A stretch of 64,000 bases of DNA from a bacterium (GTDB taxonomy: Bacteria > Patescibacteriota > Minisyncoccia > Phycocordibacterales > Zambryskibacteraceae): positions 43,534 to 107,533 of the forward strand of contig JAUSGI010000006.1 in assembly GCA_030649135.1 (NCBI GenBank), given 5' to 3'. A program made the position numbers and the translations under genes. Below the pieces are notes generated by a model. It was not told the DNA's origin, searched no databases, and saw only the letters and a list, made by a program, of their open reading frames with translations. Positions 1,673-61,990 of this stretch are shown here, piece after piece (the first letter of the stretch is position 1; each line of letters opens with the position of its first letter).

Positions 1673-3544
1673 TTATTTTTTAGCTTTGGCACGAAGCACT
1701 TTTGGTGTAATGACAATGCGTGATTCGTTGCCGTAAATATCCAAAAATACGAGCATGACATCACCTTTAATTTCTTTGGTGGGTAGCTCTATTTTCCACT
1801 TGTTATCTTTTATCGCGCTCGCGTAAAACGCTTTATCCAAATCAAATACCTTTCCGTTGTAATCGTAATCTACCATCACCATTGAAAGCGCGTCGTGCTT
1901 GCTAATTTTATCCTCTCCGCGCAGTCGCGCCTTGCTCTCAAACTTCTTTATTTTAACAGACACGGCTTGTTTCTTTGCGGCAAGCTCAAGCTCAACTACC
2001 GGCGGCTGGATAAAATCAAAACCCACCGCCTCAACGGTTTCGTTGATAGCCATTTCGTCGTTTGGCTGAACGAGCGCGGAAAATTTACGTCGGTGCAGTT
2101 CGTTGATAAAAGAATACGGAATACGAAGCGCGTAATATCGCACACCGTCCATTTCGAGATAATCCTCTTGGAAAAGGAACGCGCCGCGCGGAGCAATAAT
2201 AAAGCAACGATCTCCAACGGCTTTTCCAATGCTTGCGTGCAAGTCTGCTATTGTCTGCTGGCTAATCTGTCCTTCCTTAAAATGATTGAAAACATGAACG
2301 CTTGAACCTTGTCGCTTGCCATCCATTTGGAAGCCATGAATTTTGTGTGGCTCGTCTTTGCACTCAAAAAGCTGGAGCGCAAAAAATCGCCAATCTTCCC
2401 ACGGCAAATTTCTCAAATTCTCAAAATCATACAAACCAGCGTTATAAAGTGTGAACGGCTTGGCGGCAAGCGACTCACCAGTATTGCTGATATTTTTGCG
2501 TAAAGTTAGCATTCGTTTTTGAATGGTATAAACTGCGAGCTTACTTACATCAATTGCAATCCAGCGTCGCTCTAACTTTTCGGCTGTCGCGGAAGTCGTT
2601 CCCGAACCCGCAAAAACATCCATAACAATATCACCTTTATTTGAGGAAGCTTCAATAATGCGCTTAATCAATGCCTCTGGTTTCTGTGTCGGAAAATCAA
2701 CTCGCTCTTTTGAATCCGCCTCTGTACCTAAAGGATAAATATCTTCCCAAACATCCCTACATACAGAATTGTGATACCACTTTTGTTTGTCTTTATCGAA
2801 AAATTCAGGATATTTTTCACTAAAGTTATATTTCTTTTGCTGATACGATTTGTAGTATTGTGTGTTAAAAAGAAAATTACCGTTTTTTGCGTAGTAATAA
2901 ATATTATCGTGTTTTCTGGCAAAGAAATTTTTACTTACACCACCAGTCCTATAACTCCAAATAATCTCATTTATAAAATTTTGTTCTCCAAAAATTTCAT
3001 CCATTAAAACTTTTATGTAATGGCCTTTCCTATAATCAAGATGCACATAAATTCCACCATCATTTGCGAGTAACTCTTTTAAAAGAATAAGCCTCTTTCG
3101 CATAAATTCTAAAAATGCGCTGCCAGCAATTTTATCTTGATATGCTTTTTGATCTTGGCTTCCTTTGAAATCTCGCCGTGTTGAAAATGGTGGATCAATG
3201 TAAATAAGCCGAACGCCCGGCGTGCCGTCGGCGTTCACCAGCTTTCCATCTGCTTTCATTTGCAAAAGCGTCTTTATAGCCTGCAAATTGTCGCCAAAAA
3301 TAAGTTTGTTGTGCCAATCAACCCCGTTCTGTCCAAAAGTGCTGACTTCTTGAAACGGCACAGCCATTGTGTCGGCGAGAATTTGCTCCTCGGTTTCTTT
3401 GCCGTTGTAGACAAGTTCGTACTCGCGGCGTTCGGGCGGAAAAAACTCTCGCGCCCACTCTGCCGGAAGTTCCTCGCCGGTTTCGGTCAGCTTGAGTCCT
3501 CGTTTTAGCAACTCGTATATCTTTTCTTGACGACGTTTGTCCAT
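1673..3544 (-). CDS. mod: Type III R-M Mod subunit (beta-class N6-adenine DNA methyltransferase)
   Basis: 623 aa ORF. Motif IV IYIDPPFS (DPPF) precedes motif I VMDVFAGSGTT (FxGxG), the beta-class order typical of Type III Mod proteins. Immediately upstream of the res-like gene on the same strand. Confidence 0.85.
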   Translation of the reverse strand: MDKRRQEKIYELLKRGLKLTETGEELPAEWAREFFPPERREYELVYNGKETEEQILADTMAVPFQEVSTFGQNGVDWHNKLIFGDNLQAIKTLLQMKADGKLVNADGTPGVRLIYIDPPFSTRRDFKGSQDQKAYQDKIAGSAFLEFMRKRLILLKELLANDGGIYVHLDYRKGHYIKVLMDEIFGEQNFINEIIWSYRTGGVSKNFFARKHDNIYYYAKNGNFLFNTQYYKSYQQKKYNFSEKYPEFFDKDKQKWYHNSVCRDVWEDIYPLGTEADSKERVDFPTQKPEALIKRIIEASSNKGDIVMDVFAGSGTTSATAEKLERRWIAIDVSKLAVYTIQKRMLTLRKNISNTGESLAAKPFTLYNAGLYDFENLRNLPWEDWRFFALQLFECKDEPHKIHGFQMDGKRQGSSVHVFNHFKEGQISQQTIADLHASIGKAVGDRCFIIAPRGAFLFQEDYLEMDGVRYYALRIPYSFINELHRRKFSALVQPNDEMAINETVEAVGFDFIQPPVVELELAAKKQAVSVKIKKFESKARLRGEDKISKHDALSMVMVDYDYNGKVFDLDKAFYASAIKDNKWKIELPTKEIKGDVMLVFLDIYGNESRIVITPKVLRAKAKK

Positions 3545-38333: not shown

Positions 38334-38375
38334 AATGGATTACAAATTAGCAGATTTTCGCCACTAATTCAATTG

Positions 38376-38446
38376 TGCCGGTGAATGGAATCGGACCATT
38401 GTTTGAGGCTTATGAGTCCTCTGTTCTGCCATTGAACTACACCGGC
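38376..38446 (-). tRNA. tRNA-Met (anticodon CAU; initiator, elongator or Ile2/lysidine not distinguishable)
   Basis: GCCGGTG/CACCGGC acceptor, short D-loop AATGGCA, anticodon loop CTCATAA with an A-G at the 31-39 pair, T-loop TCCGATT. 71 nt, no CCA. Confidence 0.65.
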
Positions 38447-38584
38447 AATAGCCTTGATACTATATTATGAAATCTTGATTTTCTCAATAAAAAGCGTATG
38501 ATGGGCGGGACAGCGGGTTGGAGGAGTAGTACCTCGACAGGCTCATAACCTGTAGGCATCCGTGCAAATCGGGTACCCGCAACA

Positions 38585-54686: not shown

Positions 54687-55832
54687 TTATTCCCCTTCCG
54701 CGAGTTTACGCAGAGCAAGACCGATGGCCACGGCAAATTCCGGACCGGTTTCCCTAAGAATATTTTCAAGAAAGGCCGGGGCGGAAACTTTGTTGAATGG
54801 GTTGGCGATGACCACATCTGTTTTGAAATTATCTTTGGCTAGGTCCGCAAGTCCTTTGAGCGCGGAGCCGCCACCGACCAGAATCACCTTGGAAATAGTC
54901 TTGTTGTGCTTCTTCTCGAAGGCCAGAATGGCGTTATTGACCTCGGCAAAGATGTGGTCAAGGTTTAAAACGATGAGGTCGGTCAAATTTTTATCCTCAC
55001 CCGTTGCTCCCACTTGCCGTTTCATCACTTCCGCGCGTTCGAGAGTAAGTCCGAGTGATTTCGAGATGGTGGCGGTGAGGTCTTGGGAACCGCGATTGAC
55101 CGTATGCGAAGAACGGATAACTCCGCGCTCGACGACATAGAGTTTGGTCGAGGCGGCACCCATATCTATAATCATCACCGGTCGCAGCGCTTCGTCGAGC
55201 ACGGCGCGCATGGTACTGAATATCTCGATTTCGAAAAAGCCGGCCTCCAGTCCGCTTTTGGCCACAATCTCCTGATATCGAGCAATCGTTTCATTGTGTA
55301 TCGCCACAATCAGCACATCAACTTTGGCAAGCAGAGACGGCACCCCGGCTCCTTGCTCATTTGAAGGCCGTTCGTCCGGCGCGACATATTCCGAAGTATC
55401 TTCCGCCTTGACTTCACTTTTGGGAATAACAGACCAGTCAATCATCACTTCCGAAATAGGCACCGGGATATATTTACGCGCCTCAAGTGGCACCATGACC
55501 GCCAGTTGTTTGGGGCTAACATCAGGCATTTCAATCACCGACATGAGAGAGGAAGCAAACGGGATGGAGATACCGCATTTCTTTGTGGTGATGTTGACCT
55601 CCTTCTCTTTCATTAAGTCCGCGAGCGCTTGGGCAATTTTGTCCGGCGCAAGCGCCACCGCCTGACCCACACCGAGACCGGCATAAGGACCGAGGGCCAA
55701 TTCGCCATATGTCTCAAGTACGGCTTGGCTGTTTTTCTTTTTTATTTGCACTACTTTGATGGCCGAGGAACCGATGTCCACACCCAATGCCGAGGATTCG
55801 GCCTGATTGAAAAATTTAGAAAAGAATGCCAT
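54687..55832 (-). CDS. pilM: type IV pilus assembly protein PilM (actin-like ATPase fold)
   Basis: ALGVDIGSSAIKVVQIKKKN phosphate-1-like motif; 381 aa. Confidence 0.8.
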   Translation of the reverse strand: MAFFSKFFNQAESSALGVDIGSSAIKVVQIKKKNSQAVLETYGELALGPYAGLGVGQAVALAPDKIAQALADLMKEKEVNITTKKCGISIPFASSLMSVIEMPDVSPKQLAVMVPLEARKYIPVPISEVMIDWSVIPKSEVKAEDTSEYVAPDERPSNEQGAGVPSLLAKVDVLIVAIHNETIARYQEIVAKSGLEAGFFEIEIFSTMRAVLDEALRPVMIIDMGAASTKLYVVERGVIRSSHTVNRGSQDLTATISKSLGLTLERAEVMKRQVGATGEDKNLTDLIVLNLDHIFAEVNNAILAFEKKHNKTISKVILVGGGSALKGLADLAKDNFKTDVVIANPFNKVSAPAFLENILRETGPEFAVAIGLALRKLAEGE

Positions 55833-55858
55833 GTGTCTTATAATATCATAATCTTTCC

Positions 55859-56554
55859 ATGCACTTTCTCTCCCGTATTAGAGATTTGTTTACCGACTTT
55901 CTTTTCCCGCGAAGTCAGAAGGTGTTGGCACTGGAGGCGCTTTCCGCCGGAGCGCTCGTTGACATTTTGCCGCCTGCCGAACATTCGGAAGACCCGCCTG
56001 CTCCCGACGCAGGAGGGCGGGCAGGCAAAAATGTCCTGGCGCTCTTCGATTACAGTCACCCGCTTGTCAAGGAAATTATTTGGGAACTGAAATATGGCGG
56101 TAACGTGCGCATAGCGGATAAGCTCGGAGAAATTCTCTACGACCACATACAGCACGAACTCCAGGACCTTACCTATTTTGAAAAATGGAGTAAACCAATA
56201 TTATTAATGCCCATACCCATTTCAGGTAAACGGCGGTTTGAGCGCGGCTGGAATCAATCCGAACTCCTAGCTGAAGCGATTATGAAGCGTGATAGCCAAA
56301 ATTTATTTAGATACTTACCAAGGCAACTCGTCAAAGCGCGAGAGACCGAGAGTCAGACCAAGACTGCGTCGAGAACCGAGCGTTTGGGAAATATTACGAA
56401 TTCGATGAAAGTTTTGAATGCAGAGTCGGTCGGGGGAGAGTGCGTGATCGTTTTAGACGATGTGACTACCACCGGTTCCACTTTCGCCGAAGCACGAAGA
56501 GTACTCCGCGCCGCCGGCGCGAAAAAAATTTTATGCGTAGCAGTCGCGCATTAA
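55859..56554 (+). CDS. comFC: ComF-family competence protein (phosphoribosyltransferase-like)
   Basis: C-terminal PRTase motif CVIVLDDVTTTGSTF; divergent from pilM. Confidence 0.75.
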   Translation: MHFLSRIRDLFTDFLFPRSQKVLALEALSAGALVDILPPAEHSEDPPAPDAGGRAGKNVLALFDYSHPLVKEIIWELKYGGNVRIADKLGEILYDHIQHELQDLTYFEKWSKPILLMPIPISGKRRFERGWNQSELLAEAIMKRDSQNLFRYLPRQLVKARETESQTKTASRTERLGNITNSMKVLNAESVGGECVIVLDDVTTTGSTFAEARRVLRAAGAKKILCVAVAH

Positions 56555-56973: not shown

Positions 56974-57020
56974 GAATTATATCAGTACCCCAACTTTTGG
57001 CAAATACCAGAGATATTGCC

Positions 57021-57161
57021 TTATTTGCCCCGGATGAAACGCAGAAGAATCACAATAACAGCCACCACAAGTAGGATGTGAATGAGGACACCTGCAACAG
57101 GAAAAATGATAAACCCAAAGAGCCACAACACCAAAAGCACAATTCCAATAGTTACTAGCAT
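57021..57161 (-). CDS. small (46 aa) hydrophobic membrane protein resembling the lmo0937-type family
   Basis: Manual translation MLVTIGIVLLVLWLFGFIIFPVAGVLIHILLVVAVIVILLRFIRGK. Below the track's length cutoff. Confidence 0.45.
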   Translation of the reverse strand: MLVTIGIVLLVLWLFGFIIFPVAGVLIHILLVVAVIVILLRFIRGK

Positions 57162-57216
57162 GATTTTTATTAATTAATATTTACAGCTTCCATTATACCT
57201 TCTTTACAGTTAAAAA

Positions 57217-57834
57217 CTAACGAGGATTAATATACTTCTGATAATGTGGATCATCCTTACTCATGTGTTTAGCAATGATGTCTCTGATAAATTCTGATTT
57301 GTTCATTTTGTAGTAAAAACTCGCCCAATCTAAATAATTTTCTATTGCTTTACTGAATATAATATTGAATTTAACAGTAGGGCTAGCGCTTTTGCTTAGA
57401 AAATGTGCAAGTATTCGCTTAATATCTTCTTTACTAGAATATCTTGCTATGGTGAGAAGTGGTGATTTTATTCCATTTATAAAAGAGTTTTGTAGTTTAT
57501 TCTTCTTGTCTGACCCGTCATTATAAAGAAGTACCAGTACCGGCTTATTTTTACTTAAGGCCAAAGTCATTTGATGTCCAATGCTAAAACTTGATACCGT
57601 TCCTTCTATTATAACGACGTCCGACGCCAATATAGACTCGATGGCTTTATTGTAGATTGCTACTCTGTCGATTTTGATTTTCCCCTTTTTATAGTCGCCC
57701 AAAGTTGCAACGGCGTTATCAATCCAATCCCTTGTTATGGTATGGCCCGTATCCCTAACAAGATTACATATATCCACGTAATTTTTGCCATATACCTCTA
57801 GCTCAGAAGTAGAGCATGCAAAATGTATCTTCAT
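57217..57834 (-). CDS. Rcl/nucleoside 2-deoxyribosyltransferase-fold domain fused to a C-terminal ribbon-helix-helix-like domain
   Basis: KIHFACS (compare KIYFxGS) and SDVVIIEGTVSSFSIGHQMTLALSKNKPVLVL (compare Rcl ADVVVAEVTQPSLGVGYELGRAVAFNKRILCL). The expected catalytic Glu aligns to Gln. C-terminal KFNIIFSKAIENYLDWASFYYKMNKSEFIRDIIAKHMSK has a beta-alpha-alpha RHH pattern. Confidence 0.45.
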   Translation of the reverse strand: MKIHFACSTSELEVYGKNYVDICNLVRDTGHTITRDWIDNAVATLGDYKKGKIKIDRVAIYNKAIESILASDVVIIEGTVSSFSIGHQMTLALSKNKPVLVLLYNDGSDKKNKLQNSFINGIKSPLLTIARYSSKEDIKRILAHFLSKSASPTVKFNIIFSKAIENYLDWASFYYKMNKSEFIRDIIAKHMSKDDPHYQKYINPR

Positions 57835-57884
57835 AGGTATAACGATACTATAATTTGCGTATTTTGTAAATGTCTCATTTCTAC

Positions 57885-57923
57885 TTGACTTCTATGTATG
57901 GCATATGTAAATATGTATGGTAT
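57885..57923 (+). promoter_or_regulatory. promoter TTGACT(17)TAAATA overlapped by a tandem direct repeat (putative operator)
   Basis: TTGACT at 57885..57890 and TAAATA at 57908..57913. Repeats TATGTATGGCATA (57893..57905) and TATGTATGGTATA (57911..57923), 18 bp period, overlap the spacer and the -10. Confidence 0.4.
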
Positions 57924-57962
57924 ACATACAACATTACAAATATCACAAATCGCCAACTAATT

Positions 57963-58718
57963 ATGTACACAAAAATTGAACCATTTGGATATGCTGTGTA
58001 CGGCGAATTAATTGGAAGCACATGGCTAAGTCTTGTCGAGGCTGTGGTTAAAAATGGCCAAATAACAACGGACGAGGGTAGAAAAAGATACTCTCTTCAA
58101 AATATACGAGTAAGATCAGCCACTTCGGCTAGAACAGATCCGCTAATAGCTAAATATGCAAACCAGCAAAATATTGCGGAGATAGTGAAACTCACTTTTA
58201 ACAAAGATCTTATGTATGACATAGACGTAACTCCGTCATTTACTCCTGGGGCGCAAAGTTATTACGCCAGAATTAAAAATTGGAAAATGCTTGATTTCAT
58301 TGTGGGCAGGCTCACAGAAATACCGGAATCAAAAAAGGCGGTAATGTCTTTTATCAGAGAGGAAGATTATATTAAGGTTTTAAAAAACCCAAAAGATGAC
58401 TATTTGCCATGCATTACAACCATACAGTTTAGATTATTAAAAATAGATAATGAAAAAGGGTACCATATGAATATCATTTTTAGTGCCAGATCTATGGATG
58501 CCTACCAAAAATCTATCGGTAACTTGGTAGCCATTGCCATACTGGGGGAAGAAGTGGCAAAACGACTGAAAAAAAATCTGGGGGTTCCCGTCTGGGAAGG
58601 AAGCATCGATGGACTAATAACTGATGCGCATATTTACGACAACACAATAGACGAAGCCAGAAAACTATTAGAATCCTACAAAAAAATAGAGAGCAATGAG
58701 TCACATGAAAAAGCGTAA
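57963..58718 (+). CDS. thymidylate synthase (ThyA)-fold enzyme, divergent (thymidylate synthase or a pyrimidine-deoxynucleotide hydroxymethylase)
   Basis: Aligns to ThyA blocks: YLPCITTIQFRL (compare LAPCHAFFQFYV, catalytic Cys kept, His replaced by Ile); IFSARSMDAYQKSIGNLVAIAIL (compare [21 protein letters not shown]); ITDAHIYDNTIDEA (compare GDTHLYSNHMDQT). N-terminal folate/dUMP-binding blocks are poorly conserved. 252 aa from ATG 57963. Confidence 0.65.
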   Translation: MYTKIEPFGYAVYGELIGSTWLSLVEAVVKNGQITTDEGRKRYSLQNIRVRSATSARTDPLIAKYANQQNIAEIVKLTFNKDLMYDIDVTPSFTPGAQSYYARIKNWKMLDFIVGRLTEIPESKKAVMSFIREEDYIKVLKNPKDDYLPCITTIQFRLLKIDNEKGYHMNIIFSARSMDAYQKSIGNLVAIAILGEEVAKRLKKNLGVPVWEGSIDGLITDAHIYDNTIDEARKLLESYKKIESNESHEKA

Positions 58719-59283
58719 GAAAGTAGTAGTATTTGAAGGAATTGATGGTTCGGGAAAATCGACCCAAGCTCGCTTGCTATATTTTGCTCTTAAAAAAAGA
58801 AATATTTCTGCAGACTTATACCACTTCCCATCGGAGGGTATCATAGGAAAATTTGTTAGGAGTCTTTTGGAGAAGGAAGAATTTGACACTTTGGATTCAA
58901 AATCCCGTGCACTACTTACTGCTTCAGACTTTTACAGCCAATATCACAGGAGCAATAATGATTCGGATATGATTATATTTGACAGATATTTTCATTCCAG
59001 TTATGCATCTAACGATGCCTTAGACGAAGAGTGGATTAAGGCAATACATCAATATGCGCCAGACCCGGATATTGTTTTCTTTTTGGACGGAGAACCGAAA
59101 TCAATCAAAGAAAGGGATGGCATTGATTCCGGTGCAAAAAATGAAGCGAGGCAAAAAATGCTCAGCATTAGATATAAAAAGATATTTGAGAATATACCCA
59201 ATATCACCATCAATGCCAACAAAGATATTGAAACAACGCATCAAGAGGTGCTACAGACCGTTATTAAAAAATTAAATATATGA
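58696..59283 (+). CDS. tmk: thymidylate kinase-family (d)NMP kinase
   Basis: P-loop VVFEGIDGSGKST; FPSEG...IGKFVRSLL (compare TREPGGT...LAEKLRSLL); DRY motif IFDRYFHSSYA; LID-like region. Overlaps the upstream gene by 23 nt. Confidence 0.8.
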   Translation: MSHMKKRKKVVVFEGIDGSGKSTQARLLYFALKKRNISADLYHFPSEGIIGKFVRSLLEKEEFDTLDSKSRALLTASDFYSQYHRSNNDSDMIIFDRYFHSSYASNDALDEEWIKAIHQYAPDPDIVFFLDGEPKSIKERDGIDSGAKNEARQKMLSIRYKKIFENIPNITINANKDIETTHQEVLQTVIKKLNI

Positions 59284-60161
59284 TAAACATAGAAGGAGAA
59301 CTAAAAATGGAAGACAAGGTAAATGAGGACATGGATTTATTAAAATCCCTTGATGACTTGTTTACTGTAAAAAGAGGCTTTGTGATAAAAATGCCGCCAA
59401 AGGGAGAATCGGTAGCTGCTTGTTTATCTGGTGGTATGGACTCGGTTACCAATATAGCAATGCTCATGAAAGAATATGGTTTAAAAGTGTATCCATTTTT
59501 TATTAACAGGGGACAATCCAATTATGTTTACGAAAAAAAGGCGGCCGATTATTTTAATTCCTTTTTTAAAGAAAAGTTTCCCGACCTATACAATGATTAT
59601 CTTGAAATTACAGTAATGACTCCCGGGGAAGAATATAAAGACTTGCTTCGCGATGCCAAGAGGCTGGTTGACCCCTTACCATTGCGCCACAATGTATCTT
59701 ACCCATCAAGAAACCCTATAATATTCTTAACAGGGATGGAGTATGCTTATTCCTTAAAAGCAAAGGGGGTTGAAATTAAAACAATGTTCGCATCTTATGT
59801 CTCTTCCGACTCATCTTATCACTGTGGTTTAACAAATACTCGTTTGATGAATGTGCTGATGTGTCAGATACTAAACGATTGGAATTGGCAATTTATTTCC
59901 ATCCCAATAGAGCGCGAACTGGGAAACTTTTTCGACAAAGACGTGTATGTCAAATGGGGTTACGAGAACAATATTCCCCTCCACTTTTCAAGGACATGCG
60001 TTAAACACTTTGATGTCGAGTGCGGAGACTGCCCGACCTGCTGGGACAGAAGAAGGGGTTATAAAGAAGCCGGTATTGATGATCCGACCCCATATAAATA
60101 TGAGATGTCCTCAGAATTCCCAACCTATTACGACCATGAAAAAGAAGAGCAGATGCAATAA
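59280..60161 (+). CDS. QueC-family PP-loop ATP pyrophosphatase with about 45 aa N-terminal extension
   Basis: PP-loop LSGGMDSVT; FINRGQS (compare FDYGQR); PSRNPIIFLTGMEYAYS (compare PGRNILFLTLASIYAYQ); C-terminal Zn motif CGDCPTCWDRRRG (compare CGxCxxCxxR). Start overlaps the tmk stop (ATGA). Confidence 0.7.
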   Translation: MINIEGELKMEDKVNEDMDLLKSLDDLFTVKRGFVIKMPPKGESVAACLSGGMDSVTNIAMLMKEYGLKVYPFFINRGQSNYVYEKKAADYFNSFFKEKFPDLYNDYLEITVMTPGEEYKDLLRDAKRLVDPLPLRHNVSYPSRNPIIFLTGMEYAYSLKAKGVEIKTMFASYVSSDSSYHCGLTNTRLMNVLMCQILNDWNWQFISIPIERELGNFFDKDVYVKWGYENNIPLHFSRTCVKHFDVECGDCPTCWDRRRGYKEAGIDDPTPYKYEMSSEFPTYYDHEKEEQMQ

Positions 60162-60165
60162 TAAT

Positions 60166-60729
60166 ATGAAAATAGAAACAGAAATTAAATTAGCAATAGA
60201 AGAATCCTCAATAAAAGACGTCATTGCTAGAATCGAACAAGAGTTCGATTGTAAAAAATCTGACCCTTTCCTCCAGACTACGCATCAATTCTTTTTCGAA
60301 GATCATACAAAACAAAAGGCCTTCCCAAGAATCCGTAACGAAGAGAACGGGAGCATTACTTTAACTGTAAAAGCCAAACTAAAAGAAACTAGTGAATTCT
60401 TTAAACGAATAGAGTTGGAAACGACTATTACTAATGCCGAGAAGGTTATCGACATGATGCCATTTTTTGGCTTCCCTAAAAAAATCTCCTGGGAGAAAAA
60501 GCGTCATTCTTTTTTAATGAACGGCGATACTGATGTATGTTTTTTCCTGGATGAGACTCCTATGGGTTGGTTTTTAGAAATTGAGGCGGAGGAAAGTAAA
60601 ATAGAAGAAGCTATTACTAAACTTGGACTACAAGAAGCCCAAAGAATTAATGGGGCTTATCTGGGTCTATGGGAGAAATATAAAAAAGAGCACAATATTT
60701 CTAGGGATAATATGATGTTTGGTGCGTAG
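60166..60729 (+). CDS. CYTH-domain (triphosphate tunnel metalloenzyme) protein
   Basis: N-terminal ExExK signature (MKIETEIKL) and an alternating charged beta-strand pattern. 187 aa from ATG 60166, 4 nt after the QueC-like stop. The track's longer ORF 59947..60729 overlaps the previous gene. Confidence 0.55.
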   Translation: MKIETEIKLAIEESSIKDVIARIEQEFDCKKSDPFLQTTHQFFFEDHTKQKAFPRIRNEENGSITLTVKAKLKETSEFFKRIELETTITNAEKVIDMMPFFGFPKKISWEKKRHSFLMNGDTDVCFFLDETPMGWFLEIEAEESKIEEAITKLGLQEAQRINGAYLGLWEKYKKEHNISRDNMMFGA

Positions 60730-60760
60730 TAGTTTTTGATAGGCACTACCATCGCACTCT

Positions 60761-61990
60761 TCACTTCTTTTTCGACTTAAAGTATTCTTTACCTTTTATT
60801 TTCTCGGGCAACAAGTCCTCTTTAGTATACTCTCCCGCCTGCCCTCCCGATTGGTCGGGAGCGGGCAGGTCGTACCCTTCGCCGTAGCCAAGGTCCTTCA
60901 TCAGTTTGGTCGGGGCATTGCGGATTTTAAGAGGAATGGGGAGATTGCCGTGTTCTTTAGCATCAGACATGGCTGCGAGATAGGCGTAGTAGCCACTCCT
61001 ATCTTTCGGCGCGAGCGATAGATAAATCACTCCGTGAGAAAGGTTGATGCCTGCTTCAGGATAGCCGATGGTTTCCACCGCCCGGAAAACAGCGTTGGCC
61101 AGAGGCAACGCATGAGAATCTGCCATACCAATATCTTCGCTGGCAAAAATTACCATTCGCCTCGCGATAAATTTAGGGTCTTCGCCAGAATCAATCATCC
61201 GCGCTAGATAGTAGAGCGCGGCATCTGGTTGGCTGGCGCGCATGCTCTTGATAAAAGCGCTAATAGTATTGAAGTGTTCATCTCCCTTTTTATCGTACCG
61301 AAGATGTTTTGATTGGAGCGTGTTCTTCAAGTTTTCTATAGTCACGTCGCCATAGAGTCTCTCGGTATTCTCAAGCATCGCGATGGCTTGCCTCGCGTCC
61401 CCTCCTGCCATACCAATGAGCCAGTCTCTGGCATCTTGGTCCATTGAAAATTTCGTGCGTTCGATAATCTCTGCCATTTCCGTATCGGACAATTCGTTTA
61501 AAACGAAAACGCGACAGCGTGATAAAAGAGCCGGGATAACTTCGAAGCTTGGATTCTCGGTCGTAGCACCGATGAGAGTCAATTTGCCTGACTCGACATA
61601 AGGCAGGAGAAAATCTTGTTGGGCTTTATTGAATCGGTGAATCTCGTCGAGGAATAAAACTTTAGGCCCCGCCTTCGCCAAGGCTTCGGCGGGTAAGGCA
61701 AAAAGAGTATTACCTGCTTTAGATTTCTTCTGTACATCTTCAACTATTTCTCGAATATCTTCTTTGCCCGCAGAGACTGCGGAGAGTTCGTGGTACTGGG
61801 CATTGAGAGCCTCGGCATAAATTTTGGCCAAAGTAGTTTTGCCAACCCCAGGCGGCCCCCAGAGGATGAAGGAGAATAAATGCTTTTTAGACACGGCAAT
61901 TTCCAAGGGTTTCCCCTTCCCCACCAAGTGTTTCTGGCCGATAAATTCCTTTAAATTTTTAGGCCTAATTTTAAACGCCAGCGGTTCCAT
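60761..61990 (-). CDS. rarA: replication-associated recombination protein A (AAA+ ATPase RarA/MgsA)
   Basis: Walker [10 protein letters not shown], Walker [11 protein letters not shown], sensor and MgsA C-terminal domains. 409 aa. Confidence 0.85.

Follow-up and report, generated by a model that had tools for sequence, protein, structure and literature searches.

The locus considered here raises a simple question: does a short thymidylate synthase-like gene make thymidylate, or does it make something else? The gene, which we call ThyL, lies at 57963..58718 on the plus strand of a 64-kb stretch of a Zambryskibacteraceae genome (contig JAUSGI010000006.1 of assembly GCA_030649135.1; the whole stretch is referred to as the window). 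It was assigned from a list of open reading frames (ORFs), from motifs and from Pfam. The enclosing ORF spans 57870-58718 (+), and we place the start at the ATG at 57963, giving 251 residues, because all homologues start with MY[VIT]K. ThyL is a very divergent relative of thymidylate synthase, and belongs, as a uracil-type member (Asp145/Asn187), to a clade of short ThyA-fold enzymes that is small and distinct. We give roughly an even chance to the idea that it acts as a dUMP C5 one-carbon transferase, starting a cassette-encoded pathway to a modified pyrimidine deoxynucleoside triphosphate (dNTP).

The initial annotation had described a ThyA-fold protein with aligned C-terminal blocks and PCI in place of PCH, and both the motifs and Pfam bore this out. 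ThyL contains P149-C150-I151, R176-S177-M178-D179 and D221-A-H223-I-Y225-D-N227, and PF00303 matched it at 31.9 bits (cut-off 24.3, E 9.4e-8), through an alignment limited to residues 107-238. The canonical ThyA equivalogs of NCBIfam (TIGR03284 / PRK01827) reached 37.2 bits at best, against a cut-off of 327, while the top NCBIfam model, the methanogen-type TIGR03283, gave 47.1 bits over the whole model and missed its cut-off of 174.55. Sequences in the PDB were matched only at E 0.3-0.5, with phmmer and with the family profile. Judged from sequence, the resemblance to ThyA appears weak, yet above chance. We turned to structure prediction because this sequence-only assignment failed against the PDB sequences. 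In the AlphaFold2 (AF2) model, residues 81-107 and 131-150, near the active site, are poor; among solved structures, ThyL is structurally most like the 5-hydroxy-dCMP synthase 9iqc (sequence identity 14%), and MilA is one of its best structural matches. A contig search for the exact ThyL protein of the window found no record.

The part of ThyL that can be aligned holds the dUMP site. With hhalign, only residues 110-231 aligned with E. coli ThyA (residues 112-215), in keeping with the earlier remark that the N-terminal RTGTGT and WxxW blocks are unrecognisable, and HMMER alignments of ThyL to T4 dCH and E. faecalis TS concur with the hhalign equivalences. (The reference sequences of E. coli ThyA, Tmk, QueC, Ndk, human TMPK, T. 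maritima ThyX and FolA were entered by hand.) With the E. coli residue in brackets, the catalytic cysteine is Cys150 (Cys146), next to Ile151 (His147), with Tyr147 (Leu143) three positions before it; the other equivalences are Arg176 (Arg166), Ser177 (Ser167), Asp179 (Asp169), Lys183 (Gly173), His223 (His207), Tyr225 (Tyr209) and Lys124/Lys125 (Arg126/Arg127, the pair from the partner subunit). Asn187 corresponds to Asn177, which is D179 in T4 dCH and selects between uracil and cytosine. Tyr100 was equated with Tyr94 because its SYxxR motif matches VYGKQWR. The catalytic Cys and the dUMP-binding set of ThyA (Arg166, Ser167, Asn177, His207, Tyr209, Tyr94) are all matched in ThyL, and only position 187 varies in the family: Cys150, Arg176, Ser177, Asp179, Tyr100, His223, Tyr225 and Lys124/Lys125 are invariant in 37 members.

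Outside this core, the Arg126'/Arg127' phosphate clamp is absent, PESKK standing in place of PDSRR in three independent alignments. Neither the N-terminal RTGTGT (Arg21) loop nor the WxxW block has an alignable counterpart, and the protein ends ~25 residues past DxHxY, with the C-terminal lid missing. In the model, an invariant hairpin, D37-E-G-R40-x-R42 (DEGRKR), takes the topological place of the Arg21 loop. The folate site of ThyA is made up of Asp169, a Trp80/Trp83 wall and a C-terminal lid of ~45 residues; ThyL has the invariant Asp179 (=Asp169), but no WxxW and no lid. The initial annotation had considered that a careful alignment might recover all canonical ThyA residues: it does so for the dUMP core, and not for Arg126'/Arg127', the Arg21 loop, WxxW or the lid.

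A profile search showed that the nearest proteins beyond the ThyL family are short (~210 aa) TIGR03283-like enzymes. The short ThyA clade shares PC[VIL], PESK, RSxDxxxKxxxN, SYxxR and [SD]xHIY (the last being [SN]xHIY in the TIGR03283-like sequences), and has no C-terminal folate lid. Cys-Ile, the absent blocks and the absent lid are thus clade traits, found in the archaeal/methanogen-type enzymes too, and therefore not marks of neofunctionalisation, although the first two had been proposed as such. Compared with the methanogen/archaeal short thymidylate synthase (TIGR03283, MJ0757-like), its nearest family, ThyL has the same short, lid-less architecture and the same motifs, and differs by an extra N-terminal beta-hairpin, by the invariant elements KK, DEGRxR, MxDxDxxPSF and [DN]DYLPC, and by a D/N base-selector switch.

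The family is also rare. Out of 1.84 billion cluster representatives searched exhaustively with the family profile, 158 had E<=1e-3, 16 of these <=1e-30, and the family amounts to 453 clusters at 90% identity. Matches occurred in 61 of 185,579 species-representative genomes, a lower bound given that the scan consisted of two exact peptide patterns; most were in Patescibacteria, with single matches labelled Nanoarchaeota, Omnitrophota and Clostridia. Patescibacteria, i.e., the candidate phyla radiation (CPR), are the centre of the clade. Being rare and isolated, ThyL is a poor fit to a housekeeping enzyme.

What reaction do its residues predict? A 2026 study of phage ThyA homologues provides rules: at the N177 position, Asn goes with U and Asp with C; an acidic residue three positions before the Cys (the L143 position), where it lets in water, correlates with hydroxymethyl products; and D169N, together with N177D and L143E, is the signature of flavin-dependent 5-hydroxy-dCMP synthases (PMC13326640). 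The ThyL of the window has neither the mark of dCMP/CMP hydroxymethylases such as T4 gp42 and MilA, an Asp at the N177 position (it has Asn187), nor that of pyrimidine hydroxymethylases at large, the SPO1-type dUMP enzyme among them, an acidic residue at the L143 position (invariant Tyr147 is Cys150 minus 3). The residues directly preceding Tyr147 are Asp/Asn145 and an invariant Asp146, so that a shifted acidic equivalent is possible, in a region where the model has low confidence. The likeness to hydroxymethylases proposed by the initial annotation did not hold up against these rules, as Asn187, Tyr147 and Asp179 point to a dUMP methylase instead (PMC13326640).

One explanation is that ThyL is a flavin-dependent C5 hydroxylase of the ThyA fold, like the phage 5-hydroxy-dCMP synthases (RB69 gp48, DLP3 gp80 and the HY126 enzyme), and that the methyltransferase or QueC-like enzyme described below then acts on the 5-hydroxyl. 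Both types of protein are short and without a folate-lid C-terminus, and O-methylation of a 5-hydroxyl by an S-adenosylmethionine-dependent methyltransferase (SAM-MTase) would presumably be simple chemistry. However, the signature is missing from ThyL, where positions 179, 187 and 147 are Asp, Asn and Tyr: the diagnostic D169N is absent, Asp179 being invariant in 37/37 members (PMC13326640), and so are N177D and L143E. Sequence identity to 9iqc is low, as stated, and Parcubacteria are reported to be without FAD synthase (PMC4508563). We hold this explanation to be very improbable.

Position 187 divides the family in two. In the alignment, Asp145/Asn187 occurs in 23/37 members, including the ThyL of the window, and Asn145/Asp187 in 14/37, mainly from Saccharibacteria; mixed pairs occur in 0/37. 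On these residues there are two ThyL subfamilies, a uracil type and a cytosine type. Since position 187 is the U/C selector, the Asp187 sisters are predicted to act on cytosine, and such enzymes cannot be thymidylate synthases.

ThyL does not stand alone. A GC-poor island at 57000..60750 (3.7 kb) spans exactly five cassette genes, with a GC fraction of 0.32-0.40 vs 0.45-0.52 in both flanks (400-nt windows). The genes are tightly packed: a divergent DNPH1-like gene, then ThyL and genes for a Tmk-like kinase, a QueC-like ATPase and a CYTH protein. A cassette of these five genes is also present in a Paceibacterota metagenome-assembled genome (L005), from another class, with 50-71% protein identity and different flanking genes. 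These observations suggest that the cassette was acquired horizontally.

The Tmk-like P-loop kinase (58696..59283, +) overlaps the ThyL stop by 23 nt. It scored 92 bits with PF02223 and, above the cut-off of 83.25, 91 bits with TIGR00041. In an alignment with E. coli and human TMPK, the thymine-stacking Phe and the O4-binding Arg (Phe70/Arg74 in E. coli, Phe72/Arg76 in human) are replaced by Thr/Phe; ALLTASDF replaces LLFSANR in 4/4 in-operon copies, whereas a neighbouring divergent Tmk in one locus (L008) is canonical.

The next gene, with an ATGA overlap with the Tmk stop, encodes a QueC-like PP-loop ATPase of type A, 293 aa (59280..60161, +). QueC enzymes adenylate carboxylates. The protein keeps SGGMDS, YPSRN and a Cx7CxxCxxC zinc motif, and carries a conserved 45-aa N-terminal extension, while its substrate motifs, which experiments on QueC had defined, are altered: FDYGQRHxxE becomes FINRGQSNYVYE (YxQxHxxE to RGQSNYVYE), YPDC becomes SSYHCG, and the essential Tyr35 is an Arg. 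The canonical QueC signature is SGGxDS, YxQxHxxE, VPxRN, YPDC and C(x)8CxxCxxC (PMC13329287). PF06508 gave 41.8 bits, and TIGR00364 gave 27.8 bits vs a cut-off of 150.3; the score was far under the QatC cut-off as well, and the top PDB sequence match was Cap9 (E 0.0026). Relative to QueC, Cap9 and QatC, the PP-loop SGGxDS, the VPxRN-like YPSRN and the C-terminal Cys4 zinc motif are common ground, and the changed YxQxHxxE and YPDC, the N-terminal extension and the linkage to a ThyA-fold gene set this protein apart. Its family counts 131 members, including a QueC-Ham1 fusion. A true queuosine QueC was considered and rejected because of the TIGR00364 score and the altered substrate motifs.

The CYTH gene (triphosphate tunnel metalloenzyme, TTM; 60166..60729, +; start codon checked) begins 4 nt past the QueC-like stop. 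The protein matched PF01928 at 28.6 bits and, by sequence, the Sulfolobus TTM Saci_0718 at E 4.8e-5. A Nudix or Ham1 enzyme takes its slot in other loci, and it would be the NTP-cleaving enzyme of the cassette.

The divergent gene (57217..57834, -) encodes a 205-aa protein that had no Pfam match; its N-terminal domain was identified with AF2 and Foldseek as DNPH1 (Rcl)-like, the fold of a 2'-deoxynucleoside 5'-phosphate N-hydrolase. Its model has a pLDDT (predicted local distance difference test) of 81, and the top 50 Foldseek PDB matches are all DNPH1 (TMt 0.69-0.84), the complex of DNPH1 with hmdUMP (8qhq) being among the matches. The IEGT motif is present, and the equivalent of the catalytic Glu, Glu77, is invariant. 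The 95 homologues are all unannotated, and in the loci that were checked they stand beside ThyA-like genes. To judge by its sequence and helix pattern, the C-terminal tail reads as a ribbon-helix-helix (RHH)-like DNA-binding element, and the protein is probably a nucleotide-sensing regulator and/or the dNMP N-glycosidase of the cassette. The physiological substrate of DNPH1 is 5-hydroxymethyl-dUMP (PMC10603095, PMC10483697).

Between the DNPH1-like gene and ThyL is a divergent control region of 128 nt (57835..57962), which we read directly and with a repeat finder. It contains a sigma-70-like TTGACT (57885-57890) and, after a 17-nt spacer, TAAATA (57908-57913), a candidate promoter only. Two copies of TATGTATGG[C/T]ATA (repeat families D1 and I1), at 57893-57905 and 57912-57924, show partial dyad symmetry and overlap the promoter-like site; they are a candidate operator for the RHH-like protein. 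Promoter and terminator scans of the region gave no excess over shuffled expectation, and Rfam reported no credible riboswitch or RNA element upstream of ThyL.

Is this company typical of the family? ORFs were called and clustered in all loci and the neighbours typed by tblastn and Pfam; the counts below are for genes within 4 kb of ThyL in the 37 non-redundant loci with enough flank. A QueC-like gene was present in 26/37 loci and a SAM-MTase gene, usually fused to Ham1, in 5/37, either one occurring in 31/37 (84%). CYTH, Nudix and Ham1 genes were found in 13/37, 12/37 and 13/37 loci, respectively, and any such NTP pyrophosphatase, again, in 31/37 (84%). Nucleoside monophosphate (NMP) kinase-like genes (Tmk-like or one of three P-loop families) accompany ThyL in 19/37 loci; less frequent are nucleoside diphosphate kinase (NDK) or divergent NDK-like genes (3/37) and DNPH1-like genes (5/37).

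Gene fusions join several of these partners: ThyL to Tmk (P0024), ThyL to Nudix (P0122), QueC to Ham1 (P0340) and Ham1 to MTase. In two loci (L070, L071), a fusion of a ThyA-like domain and an MTase lies between a DNPH1-like gene and a CYTH gene. The pairing extends past the ThyL family, as a more distant short ThyA (P0157) is found in a Ham1-ThyA-QueC arrangement. In contrast, a true methanogen-type ThyA (P0171; 194 bits with TIGR03283) adjoins a dCMP deaminase gene and has no QueC-like neighbour, so that ThyL differs from this type also by its association with QueC-like/MTase, pyrophosphatase and kinase genes.

The two subfamilies have partners of the same kinds. Cytosine-type members go with QueC type B, Nudix and NDK-like proteins, or with Ham1-MTase and a P-loop kinase; uracil-type members go with QueC type A, CYTH and Tmk-like or P-loop kinases. 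Because both subfamilies have such a partner, simple U-to-C amination is an unlikely task for the QueC-like or MTase enzyme; for the QueC-like enzyme we rejected it as the only role, since cytosine-type loci, too, have QueC-like partners. The step more likely targets a feature common to both bases, i.e., the C5 substituent or the C2 carbonyl.

The island, the partners, the fusions and the Asp187 sisters uphold the conclusion of the initial annotation that ThyL is probably not a housekeeping ThyA, even though the arguments originally offered for it fell away. They are also the ground for the reading that we favor. In the pathway that we infer, which assigns a substrate to ThyL, an order to the steps, and a nature and a fate to the product (entry into DNA or a role as nucleotide analogue), CYTH, or elsewhere Nudix or Ham1, would convert a pyrimidine dNTP to the dNMP substrate, and ThyL would then modify C5. 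The dUMP phosphate would be held by Arg176, Ser177, Lys124/Lys125 and Arg40/Arg42, the base by Asn187, and the 3'-OH by His223 and Tyr225. Cys150 would add to C6, and a reduced methylene-pterin, itself bound by Asp179, would donate a one-carbon unit to C5, yielding dTMP or 5-hydroxymethyl-dUMP. The QueC-like ATPase, or elsewhere the SAM-MTase, would carry out a second modification, ATP-dependent in the QueC-like case. The Tmk-like kinase, with its remodelled thymine pocket, would re-phosphorylate the product, followed in some loci by NDK or NDK-like enzymes, while the DNPH1-like/RHH protein may sense or hydrolyse a 5-substituted dNMP and regulate the operon. We slightly favor 5-hydroxymethyl-dUMP over dTMP as the ThyL product, because a DNPH1-like protein accompanies ThyL, because the pocket of the kinase is remodelled, and because the MTase/QueC step needs a chemical handle.

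Several points weigh against this pathway. We know of no chemistry that joins a ThyA product to a QueC-type enzyme. A polymerase, glycosyltransferase or nuclease, which would have hinted at DNA modification, is absent from the island, and the AF2 model appears weak close to the ThyL active site. IMG/VR viral contigs yielded no close ThyL relative, and GenBank phages nothing but matches of 24-25% identity to ThyA homologues; a phage origin of ThyL is accordingly unsupported. The Tyr147 rule argues for a methyl product, and the published rules taken alone (Asn187, Asp179 and a bulky, non-acidic Tyr147), along with the core dUMP-binding residues, would predict plain dUMP methylation (PMC13326640). 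The closest relatives of ThyL, of TIGR03283 type, are annotated as genuine archaeal thymidylate synthases, and the Tmk-like protein, on its score, clears the NCBI dTMP-kinase cut-off (91 bits vs 83.25). Parcubacteria are reported to be, in many cases, without tmk and nucleotide biosynthesis, and the scarcity of tmk makes an acquired dTTP-supply cassette a reasonable alternative (PMC4508563).

In that alternative, the main rival, ThyL would convert dUMP to dTMP as a true thymidylate synthase of archaeal type, CYTH would be a dUTP/dCTP pyrophosphatase, the Tmk-like protein a dTMP kinase and the QueC-like protein an accessory, e.g., one that makes or handles a non-folate pterin one-carbon carrier for an enzyme without folate-lid segments. 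Besides the points just given, it is favored by the apparent lack of another enzyme for the task: a motif scan for ThyX (RHRxxS) or a second ThyA-like ORF, and tblastn with E. coli ThyA, T. maritima ThyX and FolA as queries, gave no match in the window or in 65 related loci (~900 kb), a small part of any genome. Furthermore, the methanogen-type ThyA P0171 is fused to a pterin-binding domain, and short ThyAs can therefore depend on accessory pterin modules. However, a dTTP-supply cassette leaves unexplained the near-obligate QueC-like or SAM-MTase partner, the replacement of one by the other, and their fusions to Ham1 or to a ThyA-like domain. The Asp187 sisters, which cannot make dTMP, follow the same cassette logic, and the in-operon kinase lacks the thymine-contact residues. 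The rarity of the family, its patchy occurrence and its place in a GC-poor island also fit poorly, as do ThyL scores far under every thymidylate synthase equivalog cut-off. We regard this alternative as possible, though on the doubtful side.

Under another explanation, the cassette would end in a modified, free pyrimidine (base or nucleoside) with the role of a secondary metabolite or an antimetabolite, on the model of bacimethrin (BcmA/B/C) or mildiomycin (MilA/MilB). ThyL would be the nucleotide hydroxymethylase, the DNPH1-like enzyme would cut the glycosidic bond and the QueC-like or MTase enzyme would tailor the ring. The MilA/MilB and BcmA/BcmB/BcmC pathways provide the precedent, since they likewise combine a ThyA-fold hydroxymethylase with an N-glycosidase of the NDT/DNPH1 superfamily, joined in bacimethrin by a SAM-MTase (PMC5175136, PMC4081090). 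A triad of ThyA-like, NDT/DNPH1-superfamily N-glycosidase-like and SAM-MTase components recurs in L070 and L071, the catalytic-Glu equivalent of the DNPH1-like protein is invariant, and a LOG-like protein is encoded after a related ThyA-like gene in L066. On the other hand, the substrate of the Mil/Bcm enzymes is CMP, and Asp occupies their N177 and L143 positions alike, which is not so in ThyL, and those pathways end in a free base, without NMP/NDP kinases and without NTP pyrophosphatases, whereas the NMP-kinase-like, Tmk-like and NDK(-like) genes and the NTP pyrophosphatases found with ThyL indicate a triphosphate end product. The glycosidase-like protein, in only 5/37 loci, belongs to a minority of the cassettes and has, unlike its Mil/Bcm counterparts, an RHH-like tail, whose DNA-binding-like character suggests regulation; and the island holds no ThiD/PfkB-type kinase, exporter or self-resistance gene. 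We think it unlikely that a free base or nucleoside is the product.

Returning to a modified dNTP as the end product, the closest parallels are the phage pre-replicative pathways: T4 (gp56 dCTPase, gp42 dCMP hydroxymethylase, gp1 dNMP kinase), SPO1 (dUMP hydroxymethylase) and XP12 (dCMP methylase). The logic is the same, an NTP pyrophosphatase supplying a dNMP, a ThyA-fold enzyme modifying C5 and kinases restoring the triphosphate, and in both the phage enzymes and the ThyL clade there are U- and C-types told apart by Asn/Asp at the N177 position (PMC13326640). Unlike the phage systems, the ThyL cassette resides in cellular CPR genomes, belongs to a different ThyA clade, shows Tyr, not an acidic residue, at the L143 position, adds a QueC-like or SAM-MTase enzyme, and uses pyrophosphatases of the CYTH, Nudix or Ham1 kind and not of the dCTPase/dUTPase type.

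To our knowledge, nearly every known pathway of pre-replicative DNA hypermodification, so far a phage speciality, begins with C5 modification of a pyrimidine nucleotide by a ThyA-fold enzyme. A broader proposal, which we advance tentatively and consider rather unlikely as a whole, is that ThyL marks a mobile cassette, in U and C versions, scattered among CPR bacteria and a few other ultra-small prokaryotes. It would make a doubly modified dNTP, by a ThyA-fold step and then a new pyrimidine chemistry of the QueC family, and this would be put into the cell's own DNA, as the first cellular pre-replicative pathway to a hypermodified base, or used as an antiviral or anti-host analogue. If so, pre-replicative pyrimidine modification biology would reach CPR bacteria, the QueC family would gain a function beyond 7-deazapurines, and the covarying Asn/Asp and Asp/Asn pairs would offer a natural switch for studying U vs C selection in the ThyA fold. 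Annotation would be fixed as well, as the labels 'thymidylate synthase' and '7-cyano-7-deazaguanine synthase' now mislead on dTMP and queuosine metabolism in minimal genomes. Should ThyL be a plain thymidylate synthase, it would show how a lid-less archaeal-type enzyme cooperates with a PP-loop partner. We found no account of a ThyL cassette or of a ThyA-QueC association in the searchable literature, and a 2026 survey of the QueC family (PF06508) mentions no ThyA-linked group (PMC13329287).

Some further observations concern the related loci. In oral Saccharibacteria (L037-L050), a divergent tRNA-guanine transglycosylase (TGT)-like gene (~412 aa) adjoins the ThyL/QueC-like pair upstream. The adjacency of QueC-like and TGT-like genes resembles the Cap9/Cap10 and Dpd systems; we treat it as coincidence, since it is confined to a single, closely related lineage. 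A role of the cassette in defence was considered and found unsupported, as PADLOC gave weak or generic matches for the kinase and the QueC-like protein and none for ThyL. ThyL is in fragments in a complete Saccharibacteria chromosome (OX335598.1; L064), and in another locus (L065) an N-terminal fragment of ThyL continues into the QueC-like ORF, which suggests that the cassette decays in some lineages. Among the distant short ThyA-like genes, P0136 (L066) has methyltransferase and ABC ATPase genes upstream of it and the LOG-like gene after it, while P0160 (L069) precedes a gene for a purine DNA glycosylase. It seems that several different nucleotide or base pathways have recruited members of the short ThyA clade.

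Directly upstream of the island, at 54687-56554, are PilM-like (type IV pilus) and ComF-like (phosphoribosyltransferase domain) genes, which fits a CPR genome that takes up DNA. On the other side, a RarA/MgsA gene (60761-61990, -) lies beside the cassette; it is also near it in L017, L018 and L026. Between RarA and ThyL, two of these loci (L017 and L026) encode a protein of 221-233 aa, read as helix-turn-helix plus homing-endonuclease-like. Insertions may favor this site.

Elsewhere in the window, a pair of tRNA-Met (CAT) genes on opposite strands, with 65 nt between them (38375-38583), belongs to a cluster with tRNA-Asp and two tRNA-Thr; the plus-strand tRNA-Met was called by ARAGORN and went unreported at the Rfam gathering threshold. 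Finally, a 623-aa ORF at 1673-3544 (-) contains an IYIDPPF motif and resembles a DNA methyltransferase (N6-adenine or N4-cytosine); next to it is a GC-poor stretch (~3.5-6.5 kb, GC 0.38) with small ORFs only.

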